Assembly: GCA_049592615.1 (NCBI GenBank)
Contig: JBAWGF010000080.1
Span: 1,206 to 65,205, forward strand
Origin: Candidatus Acidiferrales bacterium
GTDB taxonomy: Bacteria; Acidobacteriota; Terriglobia; Acidiferrales; UBA7541
Direction of reading: 5' to 3'
Length of the DNA stretch: 64,000 nucleotides
Shown here piece after piece: positions 32,531-59,707 of the stretch; position 1 is the first letter of the stretch; every line of letters begins with the position of its first letter. The position numbers and the translations under genes were made by a program. The notes under the pieces were generated by a model. It was not told the origin of the DNA, searched no databases, and saw nothing but the letters and a program-made list of their open reading frames with translations.

Positions 32531-33436
32531 TCAGGTTCTCTTGACCTTCAACCTCTCGATTTCCTGCTCAAGTTCAGATCGTTCGAGTATTCCTTTGCGA
32601 AAGAGGACGCGCACAACGGCTTCCAGAGCCTCAGCGGTTGTCGTCGGCTGTTTTGGCGTCGGCTTTGCTGCAGGCGCCGGACCGTAAAGCGCGGGTGGAG
32701 GCGGCGAGACAAACGGCGGCTCCTGTTCTCCCAGCGAAGGCGGCGCGATTTGGCGGAGTTTCTGCAGATCTTCTGGACTCATTCCTGTGAACGAGATTCC
32801 CATCCCCATCCCTGGATGGGAGCTCCGCACCTTGCCGCGCGACTGCAAGATTTCTGCGCCCAAATCGAGTCTTAGGTCAACAGCGGAGTCAATGGGAAGC
32901 GGGGACATCATCTCGACGTAGCACCCACCGAGGCAAATGTCCGTGACCCGAGCGGGGAGCCCCATCGAGCTGCCGACAACAGTAACCTGCGCATCGATTC
33001 GGCAGGCGCGTCGCGGAAACTGGCGGCGCTCGCCGCCAGCCCATGGGACTGGCGCACCCGCCGAAACCGACTCCGTTGGCGGTGTGGGCACACCGAGGTC
33101 CGGGTTGGTTGGATCGTATTCATCCGGCACCGATTCTGACAGTTTCACGCCCCAGATATATTTCCCCGGTTCGAGGCTCCGAACACCAACCTGCCCGGCA
33201 TTCGAAGTATTTTCTTGACCCACCCACTGGACATGAAACCACGATTTTTTCCCCTGGAATTCGATCTCGATTTTGCCGCCCGGGCGTTCAATGCATTCCA
33301 AGCCTTCGAGCCTGGCACCAGAGGCGCTCACGTCACTGGTACGCGCAGTCTGAGTAAAGGGGTTTCCGTAGTGGTCCACACCGCGGACTACGATGGGAAG
33401 ATTGGCAGCGATTCGATGCTCGGTGCGACGCCCCAT
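32531..33436 (-). CDS. Tandem PilZ-domain protein (c-di-GMP receptor type) with a Pro-rich C-terminal tail
   Basis: PilZ 1 has RRTEHR (RxxxR) plus DVSASG (DxSxxG). PilZ 2 has RRQFPR plus DICLGG. Confidence 0.75.
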   Translation of the reverse strand: MGRRTEHRIAANLPIVVRGVDHYGNPFTQTARTSDVSASGARLEGLECIERPGGKIEIEFQGKKSWFHVQWVGQENTSNAGQVGVRSLEPGKYIWGVKLSESVPDEYDPTNPDLGVPTPPTESVSAGAPVPWAGGERRQFPRRACRIDAQVTVVGSSMGLPARVTDICLGGCYVEMMSPLPIDSAVDLRLDLGAEILQSRGKVRSSHPGMGMGISFTGMSPEDLQKLRQIAPPSLGEQEPPFVSPPPPALYGPAPAAKPTPKQPTTTAEALEAVVRVLFRKGILERSELEQEIERLKVKRT

Positions 33437-33606
33437 CCAAACTCCAATACAGCGCGCCTAGCCGAACGCAGACCGCCTATCTCCGAGAGGGAACCTCAGC
33501 GTAGCCCCTGATCCATCTAGGGTCAAGCCGCTCAGCGACGCCTTATTCGAGTGAGTAACAAATTGAAAAGAACCGGAAAGTAGATGGGGCTCCAGGAGAC
33601 TGAGGG

Positions 33607-34362
33607 TTAGTCAAATTCCTGAAGCGTTTTGATGTGAGCTTCGAGCGCTGCGCAATACTGGTTTTGGGCCTCGAGTTCCGCCTGGAGTTTTTTCACGAGA
33701 AATTCAAGTCTCCGAAGCTCGTTGCGCAGCTTTTGAATCTCGGCCGGCGGGGCTGCAGCTCGTGGCGCGGGCACCGGAGACGCGGGTGCGGCCACTCGCG
33801 GAGGGACGAATGCGACCGGAGCCTCGGCGCGATGTGCTGCGGGAGCCGGCGCGGCGACCATGGCGGGGGCCGGAGAAAACAAACTCGTCAGCGCACGCGC
33901 TGCGGCAGGCGACGGATCCTGCACTGAATCGGCGCCGTACGCGCTCCCCGGCGCGCCGGCCGGCTTCGGATACAGCAGATTCTTCACACGGATGATCAAA
34001 TCCTGGGGCTGAAACGGCTTTCGGATCAACTCGTCCGCCTTCACGGCCATGGCTTTCTCGGCCACAGTGCGGTTCACAACGCCCGACATCAGAATCACGG
34101 GCGTCTTGCCGAACTGCTCGTGTTGTTTGATGAACTGGCAAACTTCGTATCCGTCTTTGTCCGGCATGATCACGTCGGTGATGACGACGTCCGGCACAGT
34201 TTCATTGAACAGTGCAAGCGCTGATGCGGCGTCGGCGCACGTAATGACGTGGATGCTCTCCTTGCGGAAAGCGATCTTGATGACTTCGCGCATCGTCGCG
34301 CTGTCGTCAATGAAATAAACCGTGGGAGTCCGGGCTGCCGTGAGGGTTTGTGTCTCACTCAT
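33607..34362 (-). CDS. Response regulator: canonical receiver, Ala/Pro-rich linker and C-terminal coiled coil (FrzS-like layout)
   Basis: DD pocket (FIDDS), phospho-Asp (VITDVIMPDKDG), S (LMSG), K (RKPF), then PAPAAHRAEAP..., then EIQKLRNELRRLEFLVKKLQAELEAQ. Confidence 0.8.
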   Translation of the reverse strand: MSETQTLTAARTPTVYFIDDSATMREVIKIAFRKESIHVITCADAASALALFNETVPDVVITDVIMPDKDGYEVCQFIKQHEQFGKTPVILMSGVVNRTVAEKAMAVKADELIRKPFQPQDLIIRVKNLLYPKPAGAPGSAYGADSVQDPSPAAARALTSLFSPAPAMVAAPAPAAHRAEAPVAFVPPRVAAPASPVPAPRAAAPPAEIQKLRNELRRLEFLVKKLQAELEAQNQYCAALEAHIKTLQEFD

Positions 34363-35132
34363 GACGACTCCTTCTCTACATCGTCTCGCTCGCTCTCATC
34401 GAATTCGCGGAGGGCGTCGAGCAGCAGGTCGGTTGAAGAACGTAGGACAGTTCGTTGCGCAGCCGTGGCGCCATACACAAATTTGTAAACGCCTTTTCCA
34501 ACGCCCTGGCAAGTCTTTACGATCTGGGTCACCGCTTCGTCTCCGAAGAGCGTGCCGCATTCTGCGTGCAGAATGTCACCGGCCTCGAAGAAAATGATTC
34601 CGTCGGTGTCGCCAGCGTTTATGTGCAGCGCGCCGGTTTGCCGTGCCTGCTCGAGCATCTGAATTACGCCGGGCAAATCCAGGTGCGAAAGGCTGCCGCT
34701 CAATTCCGTGTCCGCGCTCGCCAGCATCTGCGTCGGTTGAAAACCATCCTGGCGGCTCACAAGAAACCGCCGTACATGAGCTGCAATATCCTCGGGCGGC
34801 CGTCGCCGATCCACATAATCATCGCAGCCGGCGCGGTAGGCCTCGAGCAGCGCCTGATCGCCACCACCGCCCACAGCTATCAGGGGAATGTTCGACGTCT
34901 TAGGGTCGGCGCGCAGAATCGGCGCCATTTCGAGCGCGCCCATCTCGCGCAAGTTTGTGGCGCAAAGAATCGCCATCGGCGTATTCCATTCGAGCATCGT
35001 CAATGCGTAAGTTGCCTGCGTGCTCGGAACCACTTCGAATCCCTGGTGTGCCAGCGCATCGCCCAGACGCTTGGCAAAATAGACGTTGCTGTCGATCAAC
35101 AGAATCCGCGGTAGATTTCCTGGAGCGCTCAT
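34359..35132 (-). CDS. Degenerate receiver domain plus DUF4388 (PATAN-associated) domain protein
   Basis: REC fold with DS instead of DD, no Asp at the phospho-site (AILCATNLREMG), and R instead of K. The C-terminal LSGSLSHLDLPGVIQMLEQARQTGALHI...IIFFEAGDILHAE...GDEAV matches the DUF4388 pattern from memory. Confidence 0.7.
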   Translation of the reverse strand: MSAPGNLPRILLIDSNVYFAKRLGDALAHQGFEVVPSTQATYALTMLEWNTPMAILCATNLREMGALEMAPILRADPKTSNIPLIAVGGGGDQALLEAYRAGCDDYVDRRRPPEDIAAHVRRFLVSRQDGFQPTQMLASADTELSGSLSHLDLPGVIQMLEQARQTGALHINAGDTDGIIFFEAGDILHAECGTLFGDEAVTQIVKTCQGVGKGVYKFVYGATAAQRTVLRSSTDLLLDALREFDESERDDVEKESS

Positions 35133-35599
35133 ACTCGCGCCTCCGGACGGTCCACCACGACTGGTTCTACGGCCGGCGATGTCACCAGCGTTTCCAGATC
35201 CATCACGTCCACGCTCTCAAGACCCACGGAAACCGTCCCTGATACATATTTCGGGCGCTCACCTTCGGGTGGCTTCGCTTCTGCGGTCGCGAGTTCGCAC
35301 TCACCCGTCACTGGAATCGCCGCTGGTTCGCTCACTCTGCCAATTTCACGCCGCGCCACGAGGTAGAAGCGATGTGACGGCGAGCTTTTGCCCAGCAGTA
35401 CCGGGCCGACGTCATAAACGGGTACGATGCGGCCGCGGCGGACAATTACGCCGACGACGAGCGGCGAAGTTTGCGGAAACGTGTGCAGCCGCACCGGCGG
35501 CGCGAGTTCCGACACAATATCCGCGCGCAGGGCGAAGCGGCGGTCTCCGACCTGGAGCAGGACGTATGAATTCTGTCCGGCGTTTTCCGCCGCGTTCAT
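35129..35599 (-). CDS. cheW: CheW-like coupling protein
   Basis: YVLLQVGDRRFALRADIVSEL...VVGVIVRRGRIVPVYDVG. ATGA overlaps on both sides. Confidence 0.7.
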   Translation of the reverse strand: MNAAENAGQNSYVLLQVGDRRFALRADIVSELAPPVRLHTFPQTSPLVVGVIVRRGRIVPVYDVGPVLLGKSSPSHRFYLVARREIGRVSEPAAIPVTGECELATAEAKPPEGERPKYVSGTVSVGLESVDVMDLETLVTSPAVEPVVVDRPEARV

Positions 35600-36129
35600 A
35601 CCTCGACGGCTCCTTCCATGTCGCGCTGGGCCGCAGCCATATTCGCGATGCGATCAAGACGCCGGAATTCATCCGGCGTCAAGAATCCTGCCGGCCGGAT
35701 CAACGGAATCACGTGGTCGTCCAAATATGCGAGTCCGCGATACCATTGGCGCTCCTTGCCTGTAAATCCACGCGGGAGCGGGTACACAGTTGAAATCTCG
35801 GTCATGCGCTCAATCTTGTCCACCAGCACGGCCGTGCGCAATTGGCGCAGGACCAACACGAGATTCGGCCGCGTCACGGGCAGGTTGAAATGTGCGGCGG
35901 CGTTTACGATGTAATACGTCCGGTGCGCCCGCTCGATCGTATGCCGCACTTTCGGCAAATCCGATTGCTCCAGTTCCATTGCCGCGCCCGCCAGGCTGTC
36001 GGTACTGCGGATTTCCTGCACCGCGTCCGCCGCAATCGCAAAAGTCTGATTGGCCACCGCAAAAAGGATCACCGGCTCCGAACGGTGTGCGCGTCGCGTC
36101 TTCGCCGCGTCCTGCGTCGCGAATTTCAT
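35596..36129 (-). CDS. Divergent CheW-like protein
   Basis: ILFAVANQTFAIAADAVQEI...LVLVLR...AVLVDKIERM resembles a CheW fold but is divergent. It lies between cheB and cheW. Confidence 0.55.
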   Translation of the reverse strand: MKFATQDAAKTRRAHRSEPVILFAVANQTFAIAADAVQEIRSTDSLAGAAMELEQSDLPKVRHTIERAHRTYYIVNAAAHFNLPVTRPNLVLVLRQLRTAVLVDKIERMTEISTVYPLPRGFTGKERQWYRGLAYLDDHVIPLIRPAGFLTPDEFRRLDRIANMAAAQRDMEGAVEV

Positions 36130-37244
36130 CGGACTCCCGCCGGGACCATGCGGATCAATTTCGTTACGCGCCTTTCGATCGCCGCGCCGATCTCATCGAG
36201 GCCAAGAACTTCGTCCACGCCCCCGGTCTTGATGGCTTCCGCCGGCATACCGAAAATCACCGACGTGGCCTCGTCCTGTGCGATGACGTAACCTCCGGCA
36301 CGTTTCACAGCCATCACGCCCGTCGCAGCGTCATTGCCCATGCCTGTCAGCACGACACCCACGGTGAGACTGCGTGCATACGAGGCAATCGATTCGAATG
36401 CGACGTTGGCGCAGGGCCGGTAGCCATCAATCCGCGGCCCGGAATCGAGCGCAATTTTTCCTGTCGATGAAAGCCGCAGGTGGTGCGAACCCGGACACAT
36501 ATAAATCATTCCCGGCTGAACCACTTCGTTGGCCTCTGCTTCCTTTACAGGCAGCGGCGCAATCTCCGCCAGTTGCACGGTGAACTGCTTCGTAAAGGTC
36601 GCCGGCATGTGCAGCACGAGAAATATGGCCGCTGCGATGTCCTTCGGCAATCTCGCAAGAACTCGCATCACCGCTGCGGGCCCACCCGTGGACGCTGCGA
36701 TTACAATCAACGGAAACTTTCCGCCATTTTGAGCTGCGAATGCCACGCCTTTCGACTGGCCCGACGAAGCCGAGACTGGCGCGTGAGACGAAGGTAATTT
36801 CGAGCGCGTCGCGGTCCGGACGACGCGGACCTTCGCCGCCAGCTTGAGTTTCCGCGTCAGGTCTTCGCCAACTTTTTTCATGTCCAGATCGATGCCCGTC
36901 GTTGGCTTGGGAACGAAATCGATTGCACCGAGTTCGAGCGCGCGCAGCGTGGTCGTGGCCCCTTCACGCGAATCGGAGCTAACGATCACAATCGGCCGCG
37001 GATTCTGCGACATGATCAGCTCGGTCGCTTGCAGGCCGTCGAGGTGCGGCATGTTGATGTCCATCGTGATGACGTCGGGACGCAAGGATTCCGCCAGCGC
37101 GACGGCGTCGCGCCCGTCGCGGGCCTGCCCCGCCACTTCCATTTGCGGATCGGCGTTGATGATCTCCTGCAGCACCCTGCACATGTAGGCGGAGTCATCC
37201 ACCACGAGCACGCGGATCTTTTTTGCGGTCCCCTTGATCATCAT
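36126..37244 (-). CDS. cheB: Chemotaxis response regulator protein-glutamate methylesterase CheB
   Basis: REC (VLVVDDS, ITMDINMP), then the methylesterase domain (IAASTGGP..., GMGNDAATG). Confidence 0.9.
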   Translation of the reverse strand: MMIKGTAKKIRVLVVDDSAYMCRVLQEIINADPQMEVAGQARDGRDAVALAESLRPDVITMDINMPHLDGLQATELIMSQNPRPIVIVSSDSREGATTTLRALELGAIDFVPKPTTGIDLDMKKVGEDLTRKLKLAAKVRVVRTATRSKLPSSHAPVSASSGQSKGVAFAAQNGGKFPLIVIAASTGGPAAVMRVLARLPKDIAAAIFLVLHMPATFTKQFTVQLAEIAPLPVKEAEANEVVQPGMIYMCPGSHHLRLSSTGKIALDSGPRIDGYRPCANVAFESIASYARSLTVGVVLTGMGNDAATGVMAVKRAGGYVIAQDEATSVIFGMPAEAIKTGGVDEVLGLDEIGAAIERRVTKLIRMVPAGVR

Positions 37245-40219
37245 TAAACCTGATTTAGCGGCACGCCCGCCGCTGAACGCTCTTGAGGCGTCTCGGAGCC
37301 GATCAAATTTGCAACAGTCGAAAGCAGCTGATCTTCCTGCACCGGCTTCGTCAGAAAGGCCGATGCGCCATCCTTCAATGCGCGGTCGCGATGTTTTGCT
37401 CCGGCGCGCGACGTCACGACAAGCACGGGTATCCGCCGCGTCACAGGGTTCTGCCGAAGGTGAGCCATCAGCTCGTAGCCGTTCAGCCGTGGCATCTCCA
37501 GATCGGTAATCACGAGATGACAGCCTGTCTGCGCGATGATTTCCGAAGCTTCCAACCCGTCCGAAGCAAGTCTCACGCGATAGCCTGCCTTCTCGAGCAT
37601 CCGGCCTACGAATTTCCGCACGCTAATCGAATCATCGGCGACCACTACGACGCAGTCGTTTTCAACCGGATCGACCGCTTCCGCTGGAATGCTTCCGGCT
37701 GCGACGGCTTCGGCGCCCGGCGCAAAAACGCGCGCTGCGGGAGACGAGGCAGGGAGCGCGTGGCGTTCGGCCGTATCGGTGGACACGAGCCGGTTCAGAT
37801 CGATGAGAAGGATCAGGCTGCCGTCAGGAGCGATCGTCGTGCCCGGAAAGAGTTTGACGCGGCGCAGATAGTCGCCCAGATTTTTGATGACGATTTCGTC
37901 TTTGCCGAGAACTTCCTCGACGACCACGCCCACATGTTTTCCTGCCACCTTTGCGATGACCATGTGAAAGTATCCGTTCACAGGTTCGAGCGGCGGAAGC
38001 GCGAGTTGCAAGTCGAGCCGCACGACTTCCGTGATCACGCCCCGCACGCGCGTAAGAAGTTTTCCCCCGACATCTTCAATTTCTTCCGGCCGCAAGCGGC
38101 GAATCTCTTCGACCACTGCGAGCGGAAATGCGTACACGGACGCCCCGCAACGGACAAAGAGCGCTTGCGAAATGATCAGCGTCAGCGGCACTTTAACCGT
38201 GAAGCATGCGCCGCGGCCCATTTCGGATCGGACATCGATTTCGCCGTTCAGCGTGTGGACGTTCGCGCGCACAACGTCGAGCCCAACGCCGCGTCCGGCC
38301 AGTTCCGTCATGGACGTTGCCGTCGAGAAGCCCGGCTGGAACAGAATCTCGCGGAGCTCGCGATCGCTTAGCTCCGACGCCGCCACCGGCGACATCGTTC
38401 CCGATTCGATCAAGCTTTGGCGCACGCGCTCGTAATCGATCCCGCGGCCATCGTCTTCCACTTCAATGAAGATGTGGTTGCCGCGGTGATAGGCGCGCAC
38501 CGTGATGTGACCCTTTTCGGACTTGCCATTCTGGCGGCGCGCTTCGGGGTCTTCGATTCCATGTGCAACGGCATTTCGCACCAGATGAATCAGCGGGTCG
38601 GAGATGTGCTGGATGATGTTGTTGTCGAGTTCGGTTTCGGCGCCTTCGAGCGAAAGCTCTACCGGCTTTCCGGTGGCTTTCGCCGCATCCCGCACCGTTC
38701 GCGAAAGCCGCGTGTACAGGTTGCCGATGGGCACCATACGCGCGGCTGTGATTTCGTCTTGCAAGTGGTGCGCGAGTTTCGTGAATTCATCAATGTCCGC
38801 GTCTACGCGGCCCATGAATCCTTCGAGCTGTGTCAGGATCTCGGTGACATCGGCCGAAATTTCCGTGAGCGAACGCGACAGGATGTTGAAGTCGTCGTAG
38901 CGATCCATTTCGAGTTCGCTGAACTCGAGGAGATCGTTCGACGTCATCGCGGGCAGCACTGAAAAACTCCCGCGGAAAGTGTCCTTCTGCGGGCCATGGC
39001 TGCCGGGCACGAGCGACCCGCTCAGGCGGTTGTACTCGTGCTTCTCTTGAAAATCTGAAACTTTGCCGGAGAGCCGCCCCTTCGAGAAATTCAGGACTTC
39101 TACGAGTTTCGAGAGTTCCGTCAGACGGCCAAGCATCCGCGTGCGGTTGATGACCAATTCTCCGACTGCGTTCATCATCCGGTCGAGCCGCTCGAGAGAA
39201 ATTCGCACGGACTTTGCTTGTGGTAAGCCCTGCGCGGCGGCCGGGCGCGGTGATGCGGCAGGCTGAGCCGCTTCCACCGGAGGCACTTCCGTTCCAGTTG
39301 TCGCCTCGCCTTCGGCGGCCCCTTCCGGCGCTTCTTCAGGAGCCAATTCTGCAATCCGCGCGAGCAGTGGATCGACGACCGCTCGCATCTCGGAGTCACT
39401 CGACCACTGCCGGTGCAAGAACTTTTTCAGTACGTCCACGGACTCGAGGCACAAGTCCACGATCTCGGCGCTCGGCTGCAACACACCATCGCGCAAATGG
39501 CCGATCAAGTCTTCCACGCGGTGCGCCACCGCGGAGAGTCGATGCAGACCCACCTGTGCGGCTGAGCCTTTCACCGTGTGCATGGAGCGGAAAAGCCGGT
39601 GGATATCTTCGGCATTCGGATTGGCCTCGAGCGCAAGCAAGCATTCCGTCACGGCTTGCAGATGCTCTTCTGCCTCCGGGATGAAGAATTCGAGAACTTC
39701 GTCGGGAACTTCGCTGTCTTGCGGCAGCCGATCGACGAACGAAGCCGACGGAAATTCTTCGGAAACCGGGTGGCCAAATTCGGGTTCGGCCGCAGCGGGC
39801 TCTCCAGCAGGTTCAGCGGATGGCGGAGGCGGAAAGGCAAACGCGTAGCGCTGCTTGAATGTGGCGATATCGTCCGCGGTCTCAACGCCGCTCGAATTGA
39901 TCTGCAATAGATCGAACTCGAGGACGGCAATGGCATCGGAGATGAATTCCGTCAGAGGACCGTGCATTTCCGCCGTAAGCGCCGCATTCATCGCATAGTG
40001 AAAAATGTGCGCCACTTTTGCAGCGACTTCGGAAAAAAGCGGGAACCCATAGCTGGCGGATGTGCCCGCAAGGGTGTGAGAGGCGATGTAGAGCTTTTCG
40101 AGGTCTTCCGGCCTGGTCTGCGGCTCCTGCAACAGCCCGGAGTACTCCCGCAGATACTGGAGGTTGTCCGAAGCCTCCTGCAGGAACAGTTCGACCGACT
40201 CCTGGTTCGGTCCGCTCAC
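37244..40219 (-). CDS. cheA: Hybrid CheA histidine kinase with two Hpt domains, kinase core, CheW-like domain and C-terminal receiver
   Basis: Hpt 1 IASHTLAGTSASYG; Hpt 2 RSMHTVKGSAAQVG; HLVRNAVAHGIE, DDGRGID and GRGVGLDVV; CheW-like region; REC VVVADDS...VITDLEMP...TKPV. The start is moved to GTG 40219, which overlaps the cheR stop as GTGA. Confidence 0.9.
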   Translation of the reverse strand: MSGPNQESVELFLQEASDNLQYLREYSGLLQEPQTRPEDLEKLYIASHTLAGTSASYGFPLFSEVAAKVAHIFHYAMNAALTAEMHGPLTEFISDAIAVLEFDLLQINSSGVETADDIATFKQRYAFAFPPPPSAEPAGEPAAAEPEFGHPVSEEFPSASFVDRLPQDSEVPDEVLEFFIPEAEEHLQAVTECLLALEANPNAEDIHRLFRSMHTVKGSAAQVGLHRLSAVAHRVEDLIGHLRDGVLQPSAEIVDLCLESVDVLKKFLHRQWSSDSEMRAVVDPLLARIAELAPEEAPEGAAEGEATTGTEVPPVEAAQPAASPRPAAAQGLPQAKSVRISLERLDRMMNAVGELVINRTRMLGRLTELSKLVEVLNFSKGRLSGKVSDFQEKHEYNRLSGSLVPGSHGPQKDTFRGSFSVLPAMTSNDLLEFSELEMDRYDDFNILSRSLTEISADVTEILTQLEGFMGRVDADIDEFTKLAHHLQDEITAARMVPIGNLYTRLSRTVRDAAKATGKPVELSLEGAETELDNNIIQHISDPLIHLVRNAVAHGIEDPEARRQNGKSEKGHITVRAYHRGNHIFIEVEDDGRGIDYERVRQSLIESGTMSPVAASELSDRELREILFQPGFSTATSMTELAGRGVGLDVVRANVHTLNGEIDVRSEMGRGACFTVKVPLTLIISQALFVRCGASVYAFPLAVVEEIRRLRPEEIEDVGGKLLTRVRGVITEVVRLDLQLALPPLEPVNGYFHMVIAKVAGKHVGVVVEEVLGKDEIVIKNLGDYLRRVKLFPGTTIAPDGSLILLIDLNRLVSTDTAERHALPASSPAARVFAPGAEAVAAGSIPAEAVDPVENDCVVVVADDSISVRKFVGRMLEKAGYRVRLASDGLEASEIIAQTGCHLVITDLEMPRLNGYELMAHLRQNPVTRRIPVLVVTSRAGAKHRDRALKDGASAFLTKPVQEDQLLSTVANLIGSETPQERSAAGVPLNQV

Positions 40220-41109: not shown

Positions 41110-41152
41110 AAGTCAGCGGCCGGCCGTTTTGCGCCGGCACGCGGATCCGCCG

Positions 41153-44383: not shown

Positions 44384-44396
44384 TCCTCTCTGCACT

Positions 44397-50775: not shown

Positions 50776-51129
50776 ATGAAGCAGAGATTCGGGGTTGCGG
50801 GACTTGGACTTTTGCTGCTGTTACTGGGATCGGCGGTCGTACCGCCGAAGGCTGTCGCGCAAGATGCATCCAGCGAGTCGCCCAAGCGCAAAGTAAAGAC
50901 CCGCGCTGTGCCTGAGTATCCTCCGCTTGCCAAGCAGTACAACGTCACCGGAAAAGTGAAAATCGAGGCAAAGATTTCATCCGACGGGCACGTAGTCGAG
51001 ACGAAGGTGATCGGTGGCAGCCCGTTGCTGGTGGGTGCCGCAATCGAAGCACTAAAAAAGTGGCGTTTTGAACCTTCGGCAAAAGAATCGAGCGAAGTTT
51101 TCGAGTTTAGTTTTTCGGGCCTGAACTAG
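50776..51129 (+). CDS. Periplasmic TonB C-terminal-domain protein (no TM/Pro-rich TonB body)
   Basis: Signal peptide MKQRFGVAGLGLLLLLLGSAVVPPKAVAQ, then PEYPPLAKQYNVTGKVKIEAKISSDGHVVETKVIGGSPLLVGAAIEALKKWRFEP. Confidence 0.75.
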   Translation: MKQRFGVAGLGLLLLLLGSAVVPPKAVAQDASSESPKRKVKTRAVPEYPPLAKQYNVTGKVKIEAKISSDGHVVETKVIGGSPLLVGAAIEALKKWRFEPSAKESSEVFEFSFSGLN

Positions 51130-51186
51130 CATCCGTCAGCCTGCCATTGGGGGCATCGCGACGCGCGTGGAGTGGAGGCGTTTCAC

Positions 51187-53190
51187 ATGACGATCAGTAA
51201 GAAATTGTATTTGGGATTCGGCGCCATTCTGGCGATCATGCTCGGCCTGTTCATCATCAACATCTTCACGGTCATCCGCGAATATAGCGCGCGCTCCACC
51301 GTGGCCGTCACGCTCGCCGATGTGCAGACCATCGAGACGGTCCGCTTCCAGATGATGGAAAATCGCCAGTACCTCGGGAATTATCTCCTGAGCGGCGATC
51401 TGCGCGATGAAGACAGGGCCAATCATGGAATCAACGACCTTCACGAGCTTTTGCGCGAAGCAGGAAATAAAGCGCACGATGTCTATCTCCGCTCGGCTCT
51501 CACTCAAGTGGAGGAAAATGAACACAACTGGGCGGACAATTTTGCGAAACCGATGATCGCCAAACGTCACCAAGTGGACGCGGGCGATGCTACAGTTTCC
51601 GACCTCCAGATCTTCTATCTGCAACACGATCCTGGTTCGTGGATCAACAAGTCCTCGGGCGTGCTCGACGAGGCCAATCGCGCGGTTCGCAGGGCGCTCG
51701 AAGAATCGAACTCGTCAGCCTCTTCCGCCACGGCTGTCAGCACGGGCATCACCACGGCCGGAACATTGCTTGCCATTCTCCTCGGAGGATGCATCGCCTT
51801 CTACACGGCCAAGTCGATTCGACAACCGCTATACCACTTGATTGATGTCGCGCATCGGATTGGCGAGACGGGTGATCTGGATCAGACGATCGACATCCAC
51901 CGCGCCGATGAAGTAGGCATGCTCGCGAATAATTTCAACAAGATGATCGTCCATTTGAAGGACATGGCCGCTGTCTCTGCATCCATTGCCGAGGGTCAAT
52001 TGTCGGTTGCGGTGCAGCCACGATCGCAGCAGGACACCATGGCCAAGGCATTCGCGCGAATGACGCAGGGACTTCGCGATCTCGTCCGCCAGGTTCGCGA
52101 CAGTGCCGGACAGGTCGCGAGCGGCGCGGGACAGATGGCGAGCGCCTCCGATGAATCGGCCAAGGTCAACGTGCAGGCGGCCTCGGCAATCGATGAAGTC
52201 ACGAGCACGATGCACGAGATGAGCATCAATGTGCAAAACGTCGTGAAGAATACGCAGGTTCAGGGATCGAGCGTCGCCGAGACCTCCGCATCGATCGACC
52301 AGATGGTCACTTCGATCGACCGCGTCGCCGACACGGCCAAGCTACTCGTTGACATATCGCACCGCTCTCGCGAAGAAGTTCAAACCGGCATGGTCACCAT
52401 GGACAAGGCCACCCAGGGTCTCAATCGTACGAGTCACGCAATCCAGTCGTCGGCCGAAATCATCGATGTGCTCGGGCGTCGCGCGGACGATATCGGCAAG
52501 ATCATCGAAGTGATCGACGATCTCGCCGAACAGACGAACCTGCTCGCGTTGAACGCCGCGATCGAAGCGGCTCGCGCCGGGGAGCACGGTCTTGGGTTCG
52601 CCGTGGTCGCGGAAGAAGTGCGGAAGCTCGCGGAAAAATCCACGCAGTCCACGAAGGAAATTTCTGAACTGATTGAAGGCATTCAAAAAGAGGCGCGCGA
52701 AGCCGTCGAGAACATGGAAAAGAGTACGACCATGGTGCAGGAAGGTTTGTTGCTGAACAAAGACCTCGGCCTAGCGCTTGAGAAAATCTCCGAAGTCGTC
52801 GGTGAGGTTTACAAATTCTCTCAGGAAATCGGCGCAGCCACTATGGAGCAGTCGAGCGGCTCGGCGCAGATTGCCAAGGCCACCAATCGCCTCACCGAAA
52901 TCACGCAGGAGATCACCTCTTCGGTCGAAGAGCAGGCATCGGGAGCGCAGGCGGTGGTCCGTGCGATGGAGAAAATGCGCGAGTTGGTCCAGCAGTCCAC
53001 CTCGAGTTCCACGGAACTCGCAGCTGCCGCCGAACAAATGTCGAAGCTGTCTCGCGCGCTTCTCGAAACCATGGATCGCTTTGTGATCGAGGAAAACTAC
53101 AACGACGGCCGGCGATATCCCGCGCGGCGCCCGGAGCCGGGCGGCGAACGAAATCCTCAGCACGAGTACGCAGAAGCGATTCGCTCTTGA
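51187..53190 (+). CDS. Methyl-accepting chemotaxis protein with a four-helix-bundle-type periplasmic sensor, HAMP and signalling domain
   Basis: TM1 [19 protein letters not shown], a ~170-aa helical ectodomain, TM2, HAMP, and conserved [36 protein letters not shown]. Confidence 0.9.
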
Positions 53191-53207
53191 GGGCTCACTC
53201 GCAAATC

Positions 53208-53699
53208 ATGCAAAAGGAACTTCAGATCGTCGGATTCCGGATCGGGCGCGAAACGTTCGGGCTGCCCATCTCCCTGGTCCGGGAAATCGTGCGCGTCCCG
53301 GAAATAACCTCCGTGCCGAACGCACCCGACTACATTGAAGGAGTGATCAACCTCCGCGGCCGGATTATTCCCGTCGTGGATCTGAGGAAACGATTCCATG
53401 AAGAGGTGGGCGAACCGAATAAGAAAAACCGAATCGTTGTGGTGGAGCTGGAGAGCCGCGCGATTGGTTTGATTGTGAATTCGGCTTCGGAAGTATTGAA
53501 AATTCCACCCTCCGACATCCAGGCGCCGCACGAAGTTTTTCCGGAAGGCGAGATGGACTACATAACCGGCGTGGGAAAGCTGAAAGGGCGGCTTGTGATC
53601 CTGCTCGACCTGAATCGCATTTTGCAGCGCGGGGAGCTGCATCGTCTGGATGAAGTCGCCGATTCCGCAGCCACTGTTCCGACCGGCAGCATGAGATGA
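53208..53699 (+). CDS. cheW: CheW coupling protein
   Basis: LQIVGFRIGRETFGLPISLVREIV...GVINLRGRIIPVVDL. The start may instead be TTG 53187, which overlaps the MCP stop. Confidence 0.85.
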   Translation: MQKELQIVGFRIGRETFGLPISLVREIVRVPEITSVPNAPDYIEGVINLRGRIIPVVDLRKRFHEEVGEPNKKNRIVVVELESRAIGLIVNSASEVLKIPPSDIQAPHEVFPEGEMDYITGVGKLKGRLVILLDLNRILQRGELHRLDEVADSAATVPTGSMR

Positions 53700-53741
53700 A
53701 CTTTCTGAGCCGCACTCGGGGGAAATAACGACGAGGGACGA

Positions 53742-54647
53742 ATGTCCACACTCAGTACTGAGGTCCCGCTCACCGATGCCGAATTAAAGCTCCTGCAGAC
53801 GCTCGTCTACCAGGAGTGCGGCATGTATTTCGACGAGCGCCGCACTCATTTCCTGCGCGATCGCCTCCAACGCCGCCTGAAAGCATGCCAGATGGAATCC
53901 TTCTACAGCTACTACCGGCTGCTGACCAGCCGGGAGGGCAAGCAGGAGCTCGTGGCGCTGCTCGAAAATCTTACGGTCAATGAGACCAGCTTCTTCCGCA
54001 TTCGCCCTCAACTCGATCTCTTCCAGAAAGTCGTTCTTGAAGAAATCCTGAAGCGAAAGCAGGAGCGCCGGGATTGGTCCATTCGCATCTGGAGCGCGGG
54101 CTGCTCAACGGGCCAGGAGCCATACTCGCTCGCAATCCTCGTTTGCGACGCCCTTGCTTACTACTACCTGCGCAACCCGCTTCCCTTCGAAATGCCCACT
54201 CCGAAGCCGCTGATTCCCCCGCCGTGGAAGGTGGAAATCATCGCTTCCGACATCAACTACTCGGCCTTGCTCACCGCGCAACAAGGAATCTACAGCGAAT
54301 CGCAGATGGAAACGGTGGAATACACCTGCCGGCTGCGCTATTTCGACAAAGTCGGCGATAAGTACGCCGTAAAACCAGCCTTGAAGAATCTGGTCCAGTT
54401 CGACTTCCATAATTTGAAAACGGAATATCTACCGCAGCGCAACGATGCGATTTTCTGCCGCAACGTCATGATCTACTTTGACGAAGCAGAGCAGAAGCGC
54501 CTGATCGAAAAATTCCATCGGTGTCTCAATCCCGATGGCTATCTCTTCGTCGGCCACGCGGAAAGCCTTTTCGGTCTGACAACGAAGTACCACATGATCC
54601 ATCAAAACAATGGGACCGTTTATCAGCGGCTCGAGGTGACGCAGTGA
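53742..54647 (+). CDS. cheR: Chemotaxis protein methyltransferase CheR
   Basis: ETSFFRI, RIWSAGCSTGQEPYSLA, CRNVMIYF. Confidence 0.9.
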   Translation: MSTLSTEVPLTDAELKLLQTLVYQECGMYFDERRTHFLRDRLQRRLKACQMESFYSYYRLLTSREGKQELVALLENLTVNETSFFRIRPQLDLFQKVVLEEILKRKQERRDWSIRIWSAGCSTGQEPYSLAILVCDALAYYYLRNPLPFEMPTPKPLIPPPWKVEIIASDINYSALLTAQQGIYSESQMETVEYTCRLRYFDKVGDKYAVKPALKNLVQFDFHNLKTEYLPQRNDAIFCRNVMIYFDEAEQKRLIEKFHRCLNPDGYLFVGHAESLFGLTTKYHMIHQNNGTVYQRLEVTQ

Positions 54648-56734
54648 ATTATTTTTCCGACGACCGCGCTTCCGAGCTGCGCGAGCTTTTCTTTGAAAGC
54701 GCTGCAGAAATTCTGCAGGGCATGAACGAGGCGGGGCTCGCCCTCGAAGCAAGTCCTACTGATCAGGAAAGTCTGCGCCGCGTGCGCCGCGCTGTCCACA
54801 CGCTGAAGGGTGATTCGGCGGCTTGCGGGTTCCGCGAGCTCAGCGAACTCTCGCACGAACTCGAAGACGTCCTGACGCCGGAGCTGGCCAAAGAAAATGC
54901 AGGATTGATCGCAGAGGTAGTCCTTACCGCCGCCGACACGTTTCACGAAATGCTCGCGGCTTATCGCGATCGTCTCAGACCTCCCGACGGCAAGGCCCTC
55001 CGCGAGCACATCCAGCGCCTATTGCGAAAACCGGTCGCGAAGCCGCAAAAGCCTGCGGCGGAAACGCACTTCGAGTGGACCGAATACCAGCGGCTTATGA
55101 TTGCAGAGGCGTTCCGCAAGGGCGAGACGGTGTACCACGTCGCGATGCACCTCGATCCCGAGGCGTTCCTGCCCGCTGCGTCCTATGAATTGGCCCGCAA
55201 GGCCCTCCAGAGCGCGGGAAAAATTCTTGCTCTGCATCCGGAAACCGCGCCGGTCGCCCACGTCGGCCTGATGGAAGCAGCGATCTCGAGTGCAAAGTCC
55301 GCGGATTGGATCAAGAAACGGTGCCGTGTGCCTTCCGTCGTGGTGAAGATTTCCGTTGAAAAATTGCCCGTCCCGAAATCCGTGCCGCGCGACCTGCTGG
55401 AAATCCTCCTCGAATCCGAAGCGGCTGCAGTTTCAGCGGGGATTACGCCCGCGCGAACCGAATCACCGGAAAGCCACGATGCGGAATCGGGAGCGCCCGG
55501 CGCGGCACCGGGAGGTGCTCATGCTGCCGCTGAAAACACCTTGCGCGTGGATGCCGGACGCATCGACGTCGTGATGAATCTGGTCGGCGAACTCATCATC
55601 GGAAAATCCATGCTGCATCGGACTCTCGACGAATTCGCACGGCGGCACTCGAAGGATCCACTGCAAGGAAAATTTGCCGACGCGCTCGCCTTCCAGTCGC
55701 GCATTCTCGGGGAATTGCAAAAGTCTGTCATGAAAATCCGAATGGTGCCGGTCGAGCAGCTCTTCCGCCGCTTCCCACGGGTCGTGCGAGACGTCGCCAA
55801 GCAGCGAAATCGCGACATTACCCTCGAACTCGCCGGACAGACGACCGACCTCGACAAAAGCATCCTCGACGCGCTCGCCGAACCGCTTGCTCACCTCGTG
55901 CGCAATGCAGCCGACCACGGAATCGAATCAGCTGCCGATCGAGCAGCCGCTGGAAAACCGGAACGCGGCACAATTCGAATGAACGCCTATCACGAAGGGA
56001 ACCAGGTCGCCATCGAGGTCTCGGACGATGGGCGCGGACTCGATCGCGAAAAAATTGTGCGCCGCGCAATTGAGTCCGGCATCATCCAGGCCGAAGAAGT
56101 CGCCCGGCTGAATGAAACAGAATCGCTTCAGCTTGTTTTCAAACTGGGACTCAGTACGGCAGACGAAGTGACCGAGATTTCTGGCCGTGGAGTGGGACTC
56201 GACGTCGTTCGGTCAGCTCTCGAAAACCTGAAGGGCTCCATCGAACTCGAAAGCAGGCCCGGCAAGGGCACCACGTTCCGGCTCATGGTCCCGCTAACCC
56301 TTGCGAGCATTCAAGCTCTCCTGTTCCGCGTTGCTGCACGCCTCTACGCCGTCCCGCTCGCTTCCGTTCAGGAAATCACGCGCATTCACGAAAACGAGAT
56401 TCACCGCGTGGATGATCGGGAAGTCTTTCAACTTCGCGAACAGGTTCTCACGCTGGTCCGGCTCGATCGCCTCGGGCCTAAAGAAGCACGCGGGCGCGCT
56501 GACCGTATTTTCGTGATCGTGATCGGTGCGGGAAGCCGCCGATTCGGACTTGCAGTGGACACTCTGATGGGCGAAGAGGAACTTGTGATCAAAGCTCTCG
56601 AAGATCGCCTGATCACTTCTCCCCTCGTGAGCGGCGCCTCCATCCTCGGCGATGGAACCGTGGTTCTGATCTTGAATGTGCCGGCTGTGATCGCTCATCT
56701 CTCGAGAATCCCGGCAGTGGGGGCCACGGCATGA
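54644..56734 (+). CDS. cheA: CheA histidine kinase (single Hpt, no receiver)
   Basis: Hpt AVHTLKGDSAACGF, HLVRNAADHGIE, DDGRGLD, GRGVGLDVV, C-terminal CheW-like domain. GTG 54644 overlaps the cheR stop as GTGA. Confidence 0.9.
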   Translation: MNYFSDDRASELRELFFESAAEILQGMNEAGLALEASPTDQESLRRVRRAVHTLKGDSAACGFRELSELSHELEDVLTPELAKENAGLIAEVVLTAADTFHEMLAAYRDRLRPPDGKALREHIQRLLRKPVAKPQKPAAETHFEWTEYQRLMIAEAFRKGETVYHVAMHLDPEAFLPAASYELARKALQSAGKILALHPETAPVAHVGLMEAAISSAKSADWIKKRCRVPSVVVKISVEKLPVPKSVPRDLLEILLESEAAAVSAGITPARTESPESHDAESGAPGAAPGGAHAAAENTLRVDAGRIDVVMNLVGELIIGKSMLHRTLDEFARRHSKDPLQGKFADALAFQSRILGELQKSVMKIRMVPVEQLFRRFPRVVRDVAKQRNRDITLELAGQTTDLDKSILDALAEPLAHLVRNAADHGIESAADRAAAGKPERGTIRMNAYHEGNQVAIEVSDDGRGLDREKIVRRAIESGIIQAEEVARLNETESLQLVFKLGLSTADEVTEISGRGVGLDVVRSALENLKGSIELESRPGKGTTFRLMVPLTLASIQALLFRVAARLYAVPLASVQEITRIHENEIHRVDDREVFQLREQVLTLVRLDRLGPKEARGRADRIFVIVIGAGSRRFGLAVDTLMGEEELVIKALEDRLITSPLVSGASILGDGTVVLILNVPAVIAHLSRIPAVGATA

Positions 56735-57858
56735 GCGGAAAGATTCGCGTCCTCGTGGTGGATGATTCGGCGCTGATGCGAAAGCTGATCCCGCAGGCGT
56801 TGCAGCACGATCCCATGATCGAAGTCGTCGGCACGGCAATGGACGGCGAACTTGGATTGAAGAAAATCGAAGAGCTGCGACCAACTGTTGTGACGCTCGA
56901 TCTCGAGATGCCCCGCATGGATGGGATCGAGATGCTTCGCCAGATCACGCGCAAGCATCGCGTGCAGGTAATCGTCGTGAGCGCGCACACGCGGGAAAGC
57001 GCGGGTCTCACGCTGAAAGCTCTCTCTCTCGGCGCGTTCGATTTCGTCACGAAGCCGCAGGACGCCGCTTCCGGCCGTATCGATCAGATCGCAGCGGACC
57101 TTGCCATGAAGATCAAGGCCGCCGCGGTTTCCGGTGCGCCGAAGATGATCATCACGGTTCCATCAGCGAAACAAAAGGAGCACCGGCGCTCGCCGCAACC
57201 GCATTGGCCTTCGCGCATCGTAGCCATCGGCGTGTCCACCGGCGGGCCCAACGCGCTGCAGTATCTATTCTCCCAGCTACCAGAGGATTTTCCCGGATGC
57301 CTGCTCGTCGTGCAGCACATGCCCGAAGGATTTACGGAGATGTTCGCCCGGCGCCTCGATGAGTCTTCGGCCATTGAAGTTAAGGAAGCGCAGTCGGGTG
57401 ATCTGTTGCTCGGCGGGCGCGCGTTGATCTGTCCAGGAAACCGCCACATTAAAGTGCGCCGCATGGATCACGGCAATATCGCCATTCTCGTGGACCAGCC
57501 GCGCGTGAATGGTCATCGTCCGTCGGTGGACGTGCTGTTCCAATCGGTCGCGCAGGAATTTGGCGCCAGGGGAATTGCAGTCTTGATGACCGGGATGGGT
57601 GATGACGGAGCCGTGGGCATGGGAGCGGTGAAGTCCGCCGGCGGCATCACGATCGCACAAAGCCCGGAAACTTGCGTCGTGGACAGCATGCCGCGCGCCG
57701 CGATCGAACGCGGCTTCGTCACACGAGTTGTATCACTTTCAAATCTTTCGAGTGTTCTTCAATCGAAATGCGTACCGGATCGGAATTTTGCAGACCCGGA
57801 TGCGGTTGCGTCCCCCGCGGGCGCAACTGCCGGAGAAGTGGCTTCGCGAAGGAGATAG
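56731..57858 (+). CDS. cheB: Protein-glutamate methylesterase CheB
   Basis: REC (VLVVDDS, VTLDLEMP), then IGVSTGGP and GMGDDGAVG. ATGA overlap with cheA. Confidence 0.9.
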   Translation: MSGKIRVLVVDDSALMRKLIPQALQHDPMIEVVGTAMDGELGLKKIEELRPTVVTLDLEMPRMDGIEMLRQITRKHRVQVIVVSAHTRESAGLTLKALSLGAFDFVTKPQDAASGRIDQIAADLAMKIKAAAVSGAPKMIITVPSAKQKEHRRSPQPHWPSRIVAIGVSTGGPNALQYLFSQLPEDFPGCLLVVQHMPEGFTEMFARRLDESSAIEVKEAQSGDLLLGGRALICPGNRHIKVRRMDHGNIAILVDQPRVNGHRPSVDVLFQSVAQEFGARGIAVLMTGMGDDGAVGMGAVKSAGGITIAQSPETCVVDSMPRAAIERGFVTRVVSLSNLSSVLQSKCVPDRNFADPDAVASPAGATAGEVASRRR

Positions 57859-57860
57859 TT

Positions 57861-58310
57861 ATGAAACAGTTTGAAGCATTGACGCGAAAGAAAGACAGTC
57901 AGGCAGTCCGCTATTTGATTGTGGACGACTCTGTCTTCGCGCGAAAGAGTCTGGCGAAGATGGTCGAGTCGTTCGCAGGCCAGGTGGTGGGCGAAGCGGG
58001 TGACGGGTGCACGGCGATCACTGAGTACGCGCGGACGAAGCCCGACATCGTCCTCATGGATATCACCATGCCGCAGATGGAAGGAATCGAAGCGGTCGAG
58101 CGAATCGTGGCAGAGCATCCCGAGGCTCGCATCGTCATGGTTTCTTCGGTCGGCTACCAGGACAACATTTTGGCCGCGCTCCAAAAGGGCGCGCGCCATT
58201 TTGTCCAGAAGCCGGTGAAGCCCGATGCGCTCTACGAAATCATCCGGTACGTGCTCAACGATGACGGCGTCACTTCGCCGGTCGGCGCGGGAGGGGAGAA
58301 TTCGCGATGA
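57861..58310 (+). CDS. cheY: CheY response regulator
   Basis: YLIVDDS, VLMDITMPQMEG, MVSS, QKPV. GGAGA RBS 6 nt upstream of ATG 57861. Confidence 0.88.
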   Translation: MKQFEALTRKKDSQAVRYLIVDDSVFARKSLAKMVESFAGQVVGEAGDGCTAITEYARTKPDIVLMDITMPQMEGIEAVERIVAEHPEARIVMVSSVGYQDNILAALQKGARHFVQKPVKPDALYEIIRYVLNDDGVTSPVGAGGENSR

Positions 58311-58807
58311 GGATGGATTTGATTCAACCATTCATCGGGTCGCTCGACACCGTGCTTGCCGAAATGACGAAGGCTCCCGCAAAGATTGTGGACCTCACGA
58401 TGGAAGAGGAGGGTTATCGGCGCAAGGGCCTGGCAGCTGTCGTCACCTTCAAGGGCCAGATTGAAGGCCGCATCATCCTCGACATGGAGCCGCGCGCGGT
58501 CGTGCAGGTGGCAAGCTTCCTCTCCGGGGCGGAGGTTGATCCCTCGGAGTCCATCATTCCGGAGACTGTCTGCGAGTTGGCGAACATGGTGATAGGCAAT
58601 GCTGTGACGCAGCTCAACGATCGCGGATTCCAGTTCAAGGTTTTCCCGCCACAGATTCTTACGCAGGAACAGTGCGATGCGGCCGGTCAGGACTCCGAAG
58701 CAACGATCCTGTGCTTTGAATCTCCTTGCGGCAATGTGTTTTTGAACATCTCGATGCACTATCACCGGCGCAGGACTCGCGAGCGGACGTCGGTTGGTGT
58801 TGGCTAA
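58307..58807 (+). CDS. cheX: CheX/CheC-family CheY-P phosphatase
   Basis: 166 aa; ELANMVIGNAVTQL matches the CheC/CheX active-site helix pattern (E-x2-N). ATGA overlap with cheY. Confidence 0.7.
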   Translation: MRMDLIQPFIGSLDTVLAEMTKAPAKIVDLTMEEEGYRRKGLAAVVTFKGQIEGRIILDMEPRAVVQVASFLSGAEVDPSESIIPETVCELANMVIGNAVTQLNDRGFQFKVFPPQILTQEQCDAAGQDSEATILCFESPCGNVFLNISMHYHRRRTRERTSVGVG

Positions 58808-58837
58808 AGAATCGAGCGAGATTCGGGCGCAGCAGAA

Positions 58838-59707
58838 CTAATGAGCGCGTGGACCTACCCTGCGATATTCTGTGCCGTGCCGGAATAATCCCGCCTTGGG
58901 CATTTCTTCTGAATAGATTACGCGTGCGGGAAGGAAAATATTCGCTGCGTTGGGCGCGTAGGGAACGGCCACATCGATCGGCGTCTCCGCATCGTACCGG
59001 CGCTTGCTGCGGAAACACATTCCGATCGGAGAAATATCCTCGCACACGGCAAGTTCGTCGTCGAATCCGGCCTGGCGTATGCACGCGGTGAGCCGGGTCT
59101 TCATTCGAATGCGCAGGCGCTCCCGTTTGTCGGTTTCAGGGGGGACCTTGTCTTCCGATTCCTGGCCGCGGCGTCCACGTGCCGCGCGCGAGGCGAGTTT
59201 CTTTTCATCTTCATGCGGGGCCTGCGTCCAGATGCTGGGGACCCCGCAGGTCTTGCAATGTCGCGCAATACCCCGGTTGGTCTCGAATCCGCGAAGCTCC
59301 AGTTCGTTGAGGTAAACCACCTCGCGGCTGCGGCAATAACTGCACTCCATCAGCATCCGCGCCACCGCCTCATCCGATTCCGCTAGAGGTGGAAATTCGA
59401 TCCCCCATAGGTCGTCGGCGCTGTCCAGAATCTCGATCCCGTAAAGATAGCCGTCTTTTTGCCGTCCGAATTGCCCGACAATGCGCACGCTGCTGTGGCG
59501 GTGGGCCTCGGTCGGCGCTTGCCGCTTGACGTGAATTTGCTGGTCGGTCTTGAGTTCCCGCGGGAGCACGATCACCGCGCCCGTCCTGTTGATCATCAGT
59601 GTATGGGTGGGCTCCTGGAATGGCTGGCCGAAACTGTCCGTGCCGGATGCTTCGAGCAGCAAAGTCAGCGAGACACGATCGCTACGACGCCGCGACGGCA
59701 ATTCCAT
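58838..59707 (-). CDS. PilZ, four-Cys zinc ribbon and PilZ protein
   Basis: N-terminal RRRSDR with a degenerate second motif. Central CSYCRS...CKTCG. The C-terminal PilZ has RERLR plus DISPIG (canonical). ATG 59707 is preceded by GGGAGGG. Confidence 0.7.
   Translation of the reverse strand: MELPSRRRSDRVSLTLLLEASGTDSFGQPFQEPTHTLMINRTGAVIVLPRELKTDQQIHVKRQAPTEAHRHSSVRIVGQFGRQKDGYLYGIEILDSADDLWGIEFPPLAESDEAVARMLMECSYCRSREVVYLNELELRGFETNRGIARHCKTCGVPSIWTQAPHEDEKKLASRAARGRRGQESEDKVPPETDKRERLRIRMKTRLTACIRQAGFDDELAVCEDISPIGMCFRSKRRYDAETPIDVAVPYAPNAANIFLPARVIYSEEMPKAGLFRHGTEYRRVGPRAH

Follow-up and report, generated by a model that had tools for sequence, protein, structure and literature searches.

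Do chemosensory gene clusters that lie side by side around a sigma-54 activator work as separate modules, or as parts of one circuit? The question is raised by a 64,000-nucleotide stretch of DNA from Candidatus Acidiferrales bacterium (GenBank assembly GCA_049592615.1, contig JBAWGF010000080.1; the whole stretch is referred to hereafter as the window), in which positions 32531–59707 form a contiguous block made up almost entirely of signalling genes (open reading frame listing, translation and Pfam). The block holds two chemosensory operons (che1 and che2), an unannotated three-gene operon (u1-u2-u3, hereafter the u operon), a kinase–receiver–activator locus and a gene for a PilZ protein at either edge. 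An earlier interpretation made from the letters of the DNA (the sequence-only reading) had taken this arrangement for one integrated circuit as opposed to independent modules; our analysis supports integration at the level of transcription, by way of shared promoter elements and a shared upstream palindrome, and so upholds that interpretation in part; c-di-GMP input through PilZ, and any cross-talk between the two che pathways at protein level, stay hypotheses. We give a probability of roughly 0.62 to the reading that the block is a clade-specific transcriptional regulon driven by its local activator.

Contiguity and signalling content were as the sequence-only reading had them, but the 34 genes that it counted reduce to 26 (open reading frame listing, translation and Pfam scans), and there is no space for 34 because most genes overlap by 1–4 nt or sit less than 55 nt apart. 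Transcription on the minus strand runs through the kinase, receiver and activator, a 298-bp gap, u1-u2-u3, che1, a 170-bp gap and the left-edge PilZ gene (PilZ2x). Divergent from the kinase, the plus strand carries a TonB_C gene and then the che2 operon, whose last gene (CheX) is convergent with the right-edge PilZ gene on the minus strand (PilZ_r).

Conserved gene order and shared control elements

One genome from each GTDB species was scanned with an alignment of u2 homologs, and 179 species proved to encode a relative; the best 80 of these 179 species loci were taken with 10-kb flanks, and all window proteins were compared with them by tblastn. In essentially every locus the order is CheA2-CheR2-CheW-MCP2-TonB_C (MCP, methyl-accepting chemotaxis protein), divergent from kinase-REC-activator-u1-u2-u3-CheY1-CheW-MCP1-CheR1-CheA1-CheB1-CheW-CheW-REC/DUF4388 (REC, receiver domain), with protein identities between window and loci of 43% to 93%. 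The exceptions are few: the TonB_C gene and the single-domain receiver are missing in four loci, u1 and u3 are missing in three, and che2 accompanies the activator locus, u operon and che1 in 79/80, the remaining locus (L042) having no che2 within 10 kb and representing a further copy within the bin that holds L041. The sequence-only reading had itself named loss of synteny in related genomes as a refuting result, and the test went in its favour, the order being kept in nearly all 80 loci (79 with che2) and the outer flanks being variable. Two side observations concern the source genomes. L042 adds an extra kinase-activator-u-che1 block to the metagenome-assembled genome (MAG) that also holds L041 (CAWBGC01), which may be a true paralogous copy or the result of two strains binned together; and five TPA_asm MAGs (L005, L021, L043, L069 and L074) carry the block yet are titled Binatus, Limnocylindrales, Cybelea or Verrucomicrobiia, which suggests mislabelled bins.

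The edges of the block were followed on longer contigs. At the right edge, the same che2 operon and a PilZ gene convergent with CheX recur on two long contigs (L081 and L083), and the genes past PilZ_r differ. At the left edge, an 89-kb metagenome contig (L084) repeats che1 followed by the REC-coiled-coil gene, PilZ, a transglutaminase and OpuAC, and a second contig (L089) has the PilZ homolog beside an OpuAC gene; synteny on this side rests on two or three informative contigs, and more distant homologs of the left-edge PilZ protein do not adjoin che genes.

Three regions within the conserved block contain a sigma-54-type −24/−12 element:

43588–43603 (minus strand): TGGCTGCGGAGTTGCA, 36 nt before the CheY1 GTG; putative che1 promoter.
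46462–46477 (minus strand): TGGCCGCGCTCGTGCA, about 110 nt before u1; putative u-operon promoter.
50717–50732 (plus strand): TGGCATTGCCATTGCA, 44 nt before the TonB_C ATG; putative che2 promoter.

All three lie on the coding strand upstream of a gene, resemble TGGCAC-N5-TTGCW and have GG and GC exactly 10 nt apart. When the best GG-N10-GC element was sought in each region across the loci, the same element was returned every time (u1, 77/77; che1, 76/76; che2, 78/78), and MAFFT alignments show conservation of 95% or more at the TGG and TGCA positions, which does not extend to the five bases of the spacer or to most columns around the element. Match quality within the window carries less of the argument. 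The pattern TGGC-N7-KTGCA matches at four places where 1.28 are expected, three of them being the promoter sites, and a strict window-wide search for TGGCAC-N5-TTGCW with up to two mismatches gave 32 matches against 29 expected, not above chance, which is why the promoter claim is based on position and on conservation between species. The fourth TGGC-N7-KTGCA match (18202–18217, minus strand) falls within the coding sequence of prephenate dehydrogenase and is most likely a chance occurrence. Read as a phylogenetic footprint, the three elements are very probably genuine sigma-54 promoters, which lends strong support to the "sigma-54 output or control" of the sequence-only reading; its further claim, that all three operons flanking the activator locus carry such promoters, stands as regards the elements but not the layout, in that the u operon separates che1 from the activator. 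A scan for sigma-70 promoters and terminators gave nothing above shuffled sequence, and one listed "terminator" was the palindrome described below. We also make no claim for a kinase sigma-70 promoter (TTGACT-18-TAACGT) that was spotted by eye over the palindrome in the kinase/che2 region and was not called by the scan.

Upstream of each promoter, at a distance of 90–230 bp, the same alignments reveal conserved blocks that contain TGAGAC:

43722–43736 (no strand assigned): palindrome GTCTCAG-G-CTGAGAC inside the 3′ end of u3, with at least 95% column conservation; candidate activator site for the che1 promoter.
46557–46590 (no strand assigned): TTGAGACGC then GTGTCAG-G-CTGAGAC, in conserved upstream blocks; candidate activator sites for the u operon.
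50491–50597 (no strand assigned): ATCTCA-TTT-TGAGTC (50491–50505), CTGAGAC (50560–50566) and TGAGAC (50592–50597), in the divergent kinase/che2 region.

Counted over all 80 loci, TGAGAC/GTCTCA hexamers reach a density of 6.46 per kb inside the three regulatory regions, as against 0.19 per kb elsewhere (a 33-fold enrichment), and four of the six CTGAGAC heptamers in the window lie within these regions. The hexamers mostly take the form of TCTCA-N3-TGAGA palindromes, whose half-sites are kept and whose three central bases vary. The che1-side element overlaps u3 in the window; in the three loci without u3 it is intergenic and still present, and is therefore not the product of a coding constraint. 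Dyad symmetry and geometry fit an enhancer-type site for a dimeric helix-turn-helix protein, as judged from the alignments, and the occurrence of one common palindrome at three promoters argues for a single regulon over independent modules.

Loci at greater divergence extend this picture. In two of them (L166 and L167, u2 36–47% identical) the complete che1 set still comes after u1-u2-u3, and both the −24/−12 elements and GTCTCA-N3-TGAGAC palindromes are present; in a third (L165, u2 about 45% identical) u1 still has a 70%-identical activator ahead of it and the palindromes are present, with no TGGC-type −24/−12 element detected. Given this tie to che1 at deep divergence, which the sequence-only reading had not noticed, the u operon is best viewed as an upstream extension of che1 and not as a free-standing module. 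In a fourth locus (L164, u2 33% identical) u2 stands alone, away from che genes and activator, with none of the motifs.

The adjacent activator and competing explanations

The locus between the u operon and che2 consists of three genes, which Pfam confirms as the GAF-PAS-PAS kinase, receiver and NtrC-type activator named in the sequence-only reading:

48447–50435 (minus strand): soluble GAF-PAS-PAS-HisKA-HATPase histidine kinase (Pfam).
48049–48450 (minus strand): canonical single-domain receiver (Pfam; residues conserved).
46652–48052 (minus strand): NtrC-type enhancer-binding protein with REC, AAA+ sigma-54 interaction domain and HTH_8 (Pfam Sigma54_activat, 7.5e-70).

The activator has the features of the NtrC family, namely a phospho-accepting Asp in its receiver, a GAFTGA motif and a C-terminal Fis-type HTH_8 domain; these make it the obvious candidate for the protein that binds the palindrome. 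We could not equate it with AtoC, PrsR (PEP-CTERM), NtrC or ZraR, as no NCBIfam equivalog reached its cut-off (the best match, AtoC, scored 433.6 bits against a cut-off of 714).

A mechanism consistent with these elements can be outlined. The kinase would sense a cytoplasmic cue (the nature of the signal is our assumption) and phosphorylate the activator, the single-domain receiver probably acting as a phosphate sink or modulator. The activated protein would bind the TCTCA-N3-TGAGA palindromes, here candidate sites, 90–230 bp upstream of the three GG-N10-GC promoters and drive sigma-54 RNA polymerase, leading to co-expression of che2 (with the TonB_C gene), u1-u2-u3 and che1. The che1 pathway so produced would be built around a hybrid CheA-REC kinase, with extra components that include a putatively non-phosphorylatable receiver fused to PATAN. 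In this scheme u3 would be made only with the activator on; since it copies the dimerisation domain of the kinase without the phospho-accepting His, it may provide feedback to the kinase or to its receivers. This feedback role, like the processes that each che pathway controls, is something we infer.

Several points weigh against a regulon run by the local activator. The palindrome could belong to another regulator. The u-operon promoter deviates from the TGGCAC-N5-TTGC consensus at three positions, the sole control for the footprints is provided by unconserved neighbouring intergenic columns, and all 80 loci come from one order, such that part of the conservation reflects shared ancestry. The 64-kb window contains no pilus genes, no flagellar genes and no rpoN, and outputs assigned to che1 and che2 are guesses. 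MCP1, the che1 receptor, does not qualify as a PilJ-like receptor (PilJ being the receptor of the pilus-type Pil-Chp pathway), in that it has almost no periplasmic domain (~25 residues between its transmembrane helices) where PilJ has a large one.

These points bear differently on the explanations that compete with the regulon. Functional independence of modules that owe their adjacency to nothing but a gene order inherited within a young clade would agree with the single-order origin of the loci, with the solitary u2 homolog in L164 (remote from che genes and any activator) and with the absence of che2 within 10 kb in L042; we regard it as highly improbable, given that the order is kept though the proteins have diverged to 45–70% identity, that the flanks outside the edges are not conserved, and that three separate promoters have the same two cis-elements. 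Binding of the palindrome by a regulator encoded elsewhere (another enhancer-binding protein, a repressor or a nucleoid protein), with the local two-component system controlling something else, gains some ground from an activator without an NCBIfam equivalog and from a view limited to 64 kb of the genome. It sits poorly with the persistence of the activator gene next to the u operon in L165, where u2 is only about 45% identical, with sites at 90–230 bp upstream of the −24/−12 elements (the usual geometry for an enhancer-binding protein) and with a site cluster within the divergent control region of the activator operon itself, and we consider it doubtful.

A third possibility concerns the direction of information flow. 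In the Che3 system of Myxococcus xanthus a chemosensory cluster likewise lies beside a histidine kinase (CrdS) and an NtrC-type sigma-54 activator (CrdA), and CheA3 acts on CrdA~P (PMC3147164). By the same logic the activator at our locus would serve one or both chemosensory pathways as an output, with CheA modulating its phosphorylation together with the dedicated kinase, the main product being gene expression and not motility; the kinase and activator adjoin che genes as they do in M. xanthus, and phosphate could be exchanged by way of the single-domain receiver or the CheA1-REC hybrid. Yet in Che3 a CheY is absent and CrdA serves as the output, whereas here both pathways have receivers of their own: canonical receivers are kept in CheY1, CheY2 and the REC-coiled-coil protein, and CheY2, a genuine CheY, has a CheX phosphatase as its partner. 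Moreover, the conserved promoters indicate control running from the activator to transcription of the che genes and not the reverse. Such an arrangement is compatible with the regulon as an added layer; as the explanation of the locus it seems unlikely to us, though deserving of some weight.

Components of the block

The operon that the sequence-only reading had described as three genes of unknown function is present at 43685–46354 and has no Pfam annotation:

46004–46354 (minus strand): u1, 116 amino acids (aa), PilZ-like beta-barrel predicted fold (AlphaFold/Foldseek); its stop overlaps the u2 start.
44397–46007 (minus strand): u2, 536 aa, predicted all-alpha; its family is unannotated, and Pfam, PDB sequence and fold searches gave no match.
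43685–44371 (minus strand): u3, 228 aa, pseudo-receiver and His-less DHp-like domain (weak HisKA match; alignment to the kinase DHp domain).

No Pfam match was found for u1 in any of 28 orthologs, and hhalign gave no match to the family of the edge PilZ proteins. The AlphaFold (AF2) model of u1 (predicted local distance difference test score, pLDDT, 78) consists of a helix and a six-stranded barrel, whose top Foldseek matches are the PilZ domains of BcsA, Alg44, MotI, VCA0042, PA0012 and YcgR (E values from 2e-3 to 3e-2, the best being 1.8e-3; query TM-score, TMq, 0.46–0.55); the model is also matched by split-barrel flavoproteins. Of the motifs of PilZ domains, R31xxxR35 is present and DxSxxG is absent. 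The third, "PilZ-like" protein of the sequence-only reading is u1, and this label finds backing in the predicted fold (Foldseek) but not at profile level (Pfam, hhalign): it is the modelled structure alone that suggests a PilZ-like fold.

The u2 protein of the window is 100% identical to a hypothetical protein from a Candidatus Acidiferrales MAG; an exact search with its sequence retrieved no contig. A search of u2 returned no Pfam match, no PDB sequence match and no Foldseek fold match (best E 0.12, TM-score 0.17). The protein is predicted to be all-alpha, with two domains separated by a disordered Pro/Ala-rich linker, and its family comprises 537 cluster representatives at 50% clustering. 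We rejected the label "HPt domain-containing" that one source attaches to it, as no HxxKG-type His is conserved. In three loci (L031, L048 and L079) u2 is kept, u1 and u3 are lost, and both sigma-54 promoters and the TGAGAC elements are still there, which makes u2 the core of this operon. u2 also recurs beside chemoreceptor genes: a homolog at 37% identity lies in a PAS-u2-MCP arrangement (JGI 3300067032 contig, genes 7905–11727).

The N-terminal half of u3 is receiver-like, with Asp57 replaced by Gly in 72/76 orthologs. Its C-terminal half gives a weak HisKA match in 30/30 orthologs and shows similarity to the DHp domain of the adjacent kinase (31% identity over 87 aa, E 6e-7), Pro replacing the phospho-accepting His; a PDB profile search with u3 gave nothing useful. 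The travelling of u1-u2-u3 with che1 down to ~40% u2 identity, together with the PAS-u2-MCP homolog, leads us to suggest, tentatively, that u1, u2 and u3 may be unrecognised accessory parts of a pilus-type chemosensory array, coupling the array to the neighbouring two-component system. u2 would then be associated with chemoreceptor or CheA, and u3 might serve as a decoy of the kinase or receivers that closes a feedback loop.

Downstream of u3 lies che1, a full chemosensory gene set with several additions:

43178–43552 (minus strand): CheY1, canonical single-domain receiver, first che1 gene (Pfam; catalytic residues conserved).
42651–43181 (minus strand): CheW1 (Pfam 3.9e-24).
41153–42598 (minus strand): MCP1, with two transmembrane helices ~25 residues apart, HAMP and MCP signalling domain (Pfam, sequence).
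40216–41109 (minus strand): CheR1 (Pfam CheR 4.3e-57).
37244–40288 (minus strand): CheA1 hybrid, with two Hpt domains (HTLAG, HTVKG), dimerisation, HATPase and CheW domains and a C-terminal REC (Pfam); start codon uncertain.
36126–37244 (minus strand): CheB1, REC and methylesterase (Pfam).
35129–36129 (minus strand): two CheW genes, 35129–35599 and 35596–36129 (Pfam CheW 1.5e-12 and 1.4e-8), with 4-nt overlaps with their neighbours.
34359–35132 (minus strand): pseudo-receiver and DUF4388/PATAN (PatA_N) protein (Pfam DUF4388 1.9e-16; REC 29.1, under the 30.2 cut-off).
33607–34362 (minus strand): canonical receiver, Pro/Ala-rich linker and C-terminal coiled coil (Pfam Response_reg 8.8e-24).

The closest PDB relatives of CheY1 are the generic receivers of MtrA, PhoP and PleD, not CheY. 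In the REC-DUF4388 protein, Asp57 is replaced by Ala, Thr87 by Gly and Lys109 by Arg in 65/65 orthologs, and the loss of these three residues leaves no conventional phospho-switch. The REC-coiled-coil protein keeps Asp12, Asp13, Asp57 and Lys109 in 18/18 orthologs, position 87 being Thr or Ser.

The che2 operon named in the sequence-only reading was likewise recovered, as MCP-CheW-CheR-CheA-CheB-CheY-CheX, and is headed by the TonB_C gene:

50776–51129 (plus strand): small secreted protein with a TonB_C domain, heading the che2 operon (Pfam TonB_C 4.5e-14).
51172–58807 (plus strand): che2, comprising MCP2 (51172–53190), CheW (53187–53699), CheR2 (53742–54647), CheA2 (54644–56734), CheB2 (56731–57858), CheY2 (57861–58310) and CheX (58307–58807) (Pfam).

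CheY2 finds its closest PDB relatives among genuine CheYs (about 1e-25), and the CheX gene comes next in the operon; on these grounds che2 resembles an ordinary chemotaxis pathway. The TonB_C gene was found in about 74/80 loci and not detected in L071, L072, L076 and L080. In Pseudomonas aeruginosa tonB3 is listed among the genes needed for twitching motility (PMC6321873), a parallel that we treat as a lead only.

At both ends of the block, as the sequence-only reading had it, Pfam recognises a PilZ protein:

32531–33436 (minus strand): PilZ2x, 301 aa, two PilZ domains, left edge (Pfam PilZ E 9e-16, two stretches).
58838–59707 (minus strand): PilZ_r, 289 aa, degenerate N-terminal PilZ-like region, CxxC...CxxC and C-terminal PilZ domain, right edge (Pfam PilZ 5.8e-10, one stretch).

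Motifs of PilZ2x, assigned by eye, are RTEHR and DVSASG in the N-terminal domain and RQFPR and DICLGG in the C-terminal domain; the protein is fast-evolving, its best metagenome relative being only 57% identical. The RxxxR arginines and D224-x-S226-x-x-G229 of PilZ_r are invariant or nearly so. On inspection, RxxxR and D/NxSxxG, the binding motifs of PilZ c-di-GMP receptors, occur together in the N-terminal domain of the left protein and the C-terminal domain of the right one. The invariant CxxC...CxxC of PilZ_r (residues about 122–154), between its PilZ-like halves, is probably a zinc ribbon.

The remainder of the window is housekeeping in nature (trp operon, DAHP synthase, CoA transferase, TonB-dependent receptors). 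Other features of this remainder include a second-messenger gene pair, formed by a GAF and HD/HD_5 protein (9137–11125, minus strand) divergent from a CHASE2 adenylate/guanylate cyclase (11254–13695, plus strand); a receiver fused to a trypsin-like peptidase domain, an unusual output domain (23923–25602, minus strand); and a 363-aa open reading frame with no Pfam family at E <= 0.001 (8049–9140, minus strand).

Relation to known systems

The Pil-Chp gene order that the sequence-only reading assigned to che1 agrees with its Pfam gene content: CheY-CheW-MCP-CheR-CheA (two Hpt domains, C-terminal REC)-CheB-CheW corresponds to the pilGHIJK-chpABC order of P. aeruginosa, where the CheA is also a multi-Hpt protein with a C-terminal REC, and where links to pilus function are likewise reported for PilZ-type proteins and a TonB-family gene (PMC6321873). 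There are differences: che1 has one leading receiver in place of PilG and PilH, a sigma-54 promoter, no pilus genes nearby and extra genes, namely a further CheW, the pseudo-REC-PATAN gene and the REC-coiled-coil gene. ChpA has about eight Hpt domains, whereas CheA1 has two. A pilus-control-type chemosensory operon, a CheA-REC hybrid and a PATAN (DUF4388) protein are also shared with the cyanobacterial Tax/Pix systems and their PatA-type regulators; PatA-type proteins are PATAN-REC in order, whereas the protein encoded here is REC then PATAN and lacks the phospho-accepting Asp in 65/65 orthologs, and so is not of the PatA type. In cyanobacteria, PATAN is an output domain that binds to the motor of the type IV pilus: in Synechocystis, PATAN, which is the same as DUF4388, binds PilB1 and PilC (bioRxiv 10.1101/2021.06.11.447907). 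By analogy with these systems, control of pili by che1 is a lead and not a finding.

Sigma-54 promoters ahead of che operons have precedents, having been predicted in Geobacter and shown in Rhodobacter; as here, −24/−12 promoters precede che clusters in Geobacter and Rhodobacter sphaeroides, and each species has several pathways (PMC2577667). The accessible part of that source reports no shared upstream site, and no adjacent dedicated activator, joining two pathways and an accessory operon. Within the paper library that was searched, there was nothing on the block or on chemotaxis in Acidiferrales. What sets the block apart from these systems is one conserved candidate enhancer motif that would link two chemosensory pathways and an unannotated operon to an adjacent activator throughout an order.

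Where bacteria have several chemosensory pathways, each is usually regulated on its own; here two different pathways and an accessory operon seem to be connected to a single activator by way of a recognisable DNA site, in a group of abundant, uncultured Acidobacteria of soil and peat. The pairing of the palindrome with the −24/−12 element provides a handle by which the whole regulon could be defined in complete genomes, and u1, u2 and u3 are cheap and specific targets in the search for new chemosensory accessory proteins.

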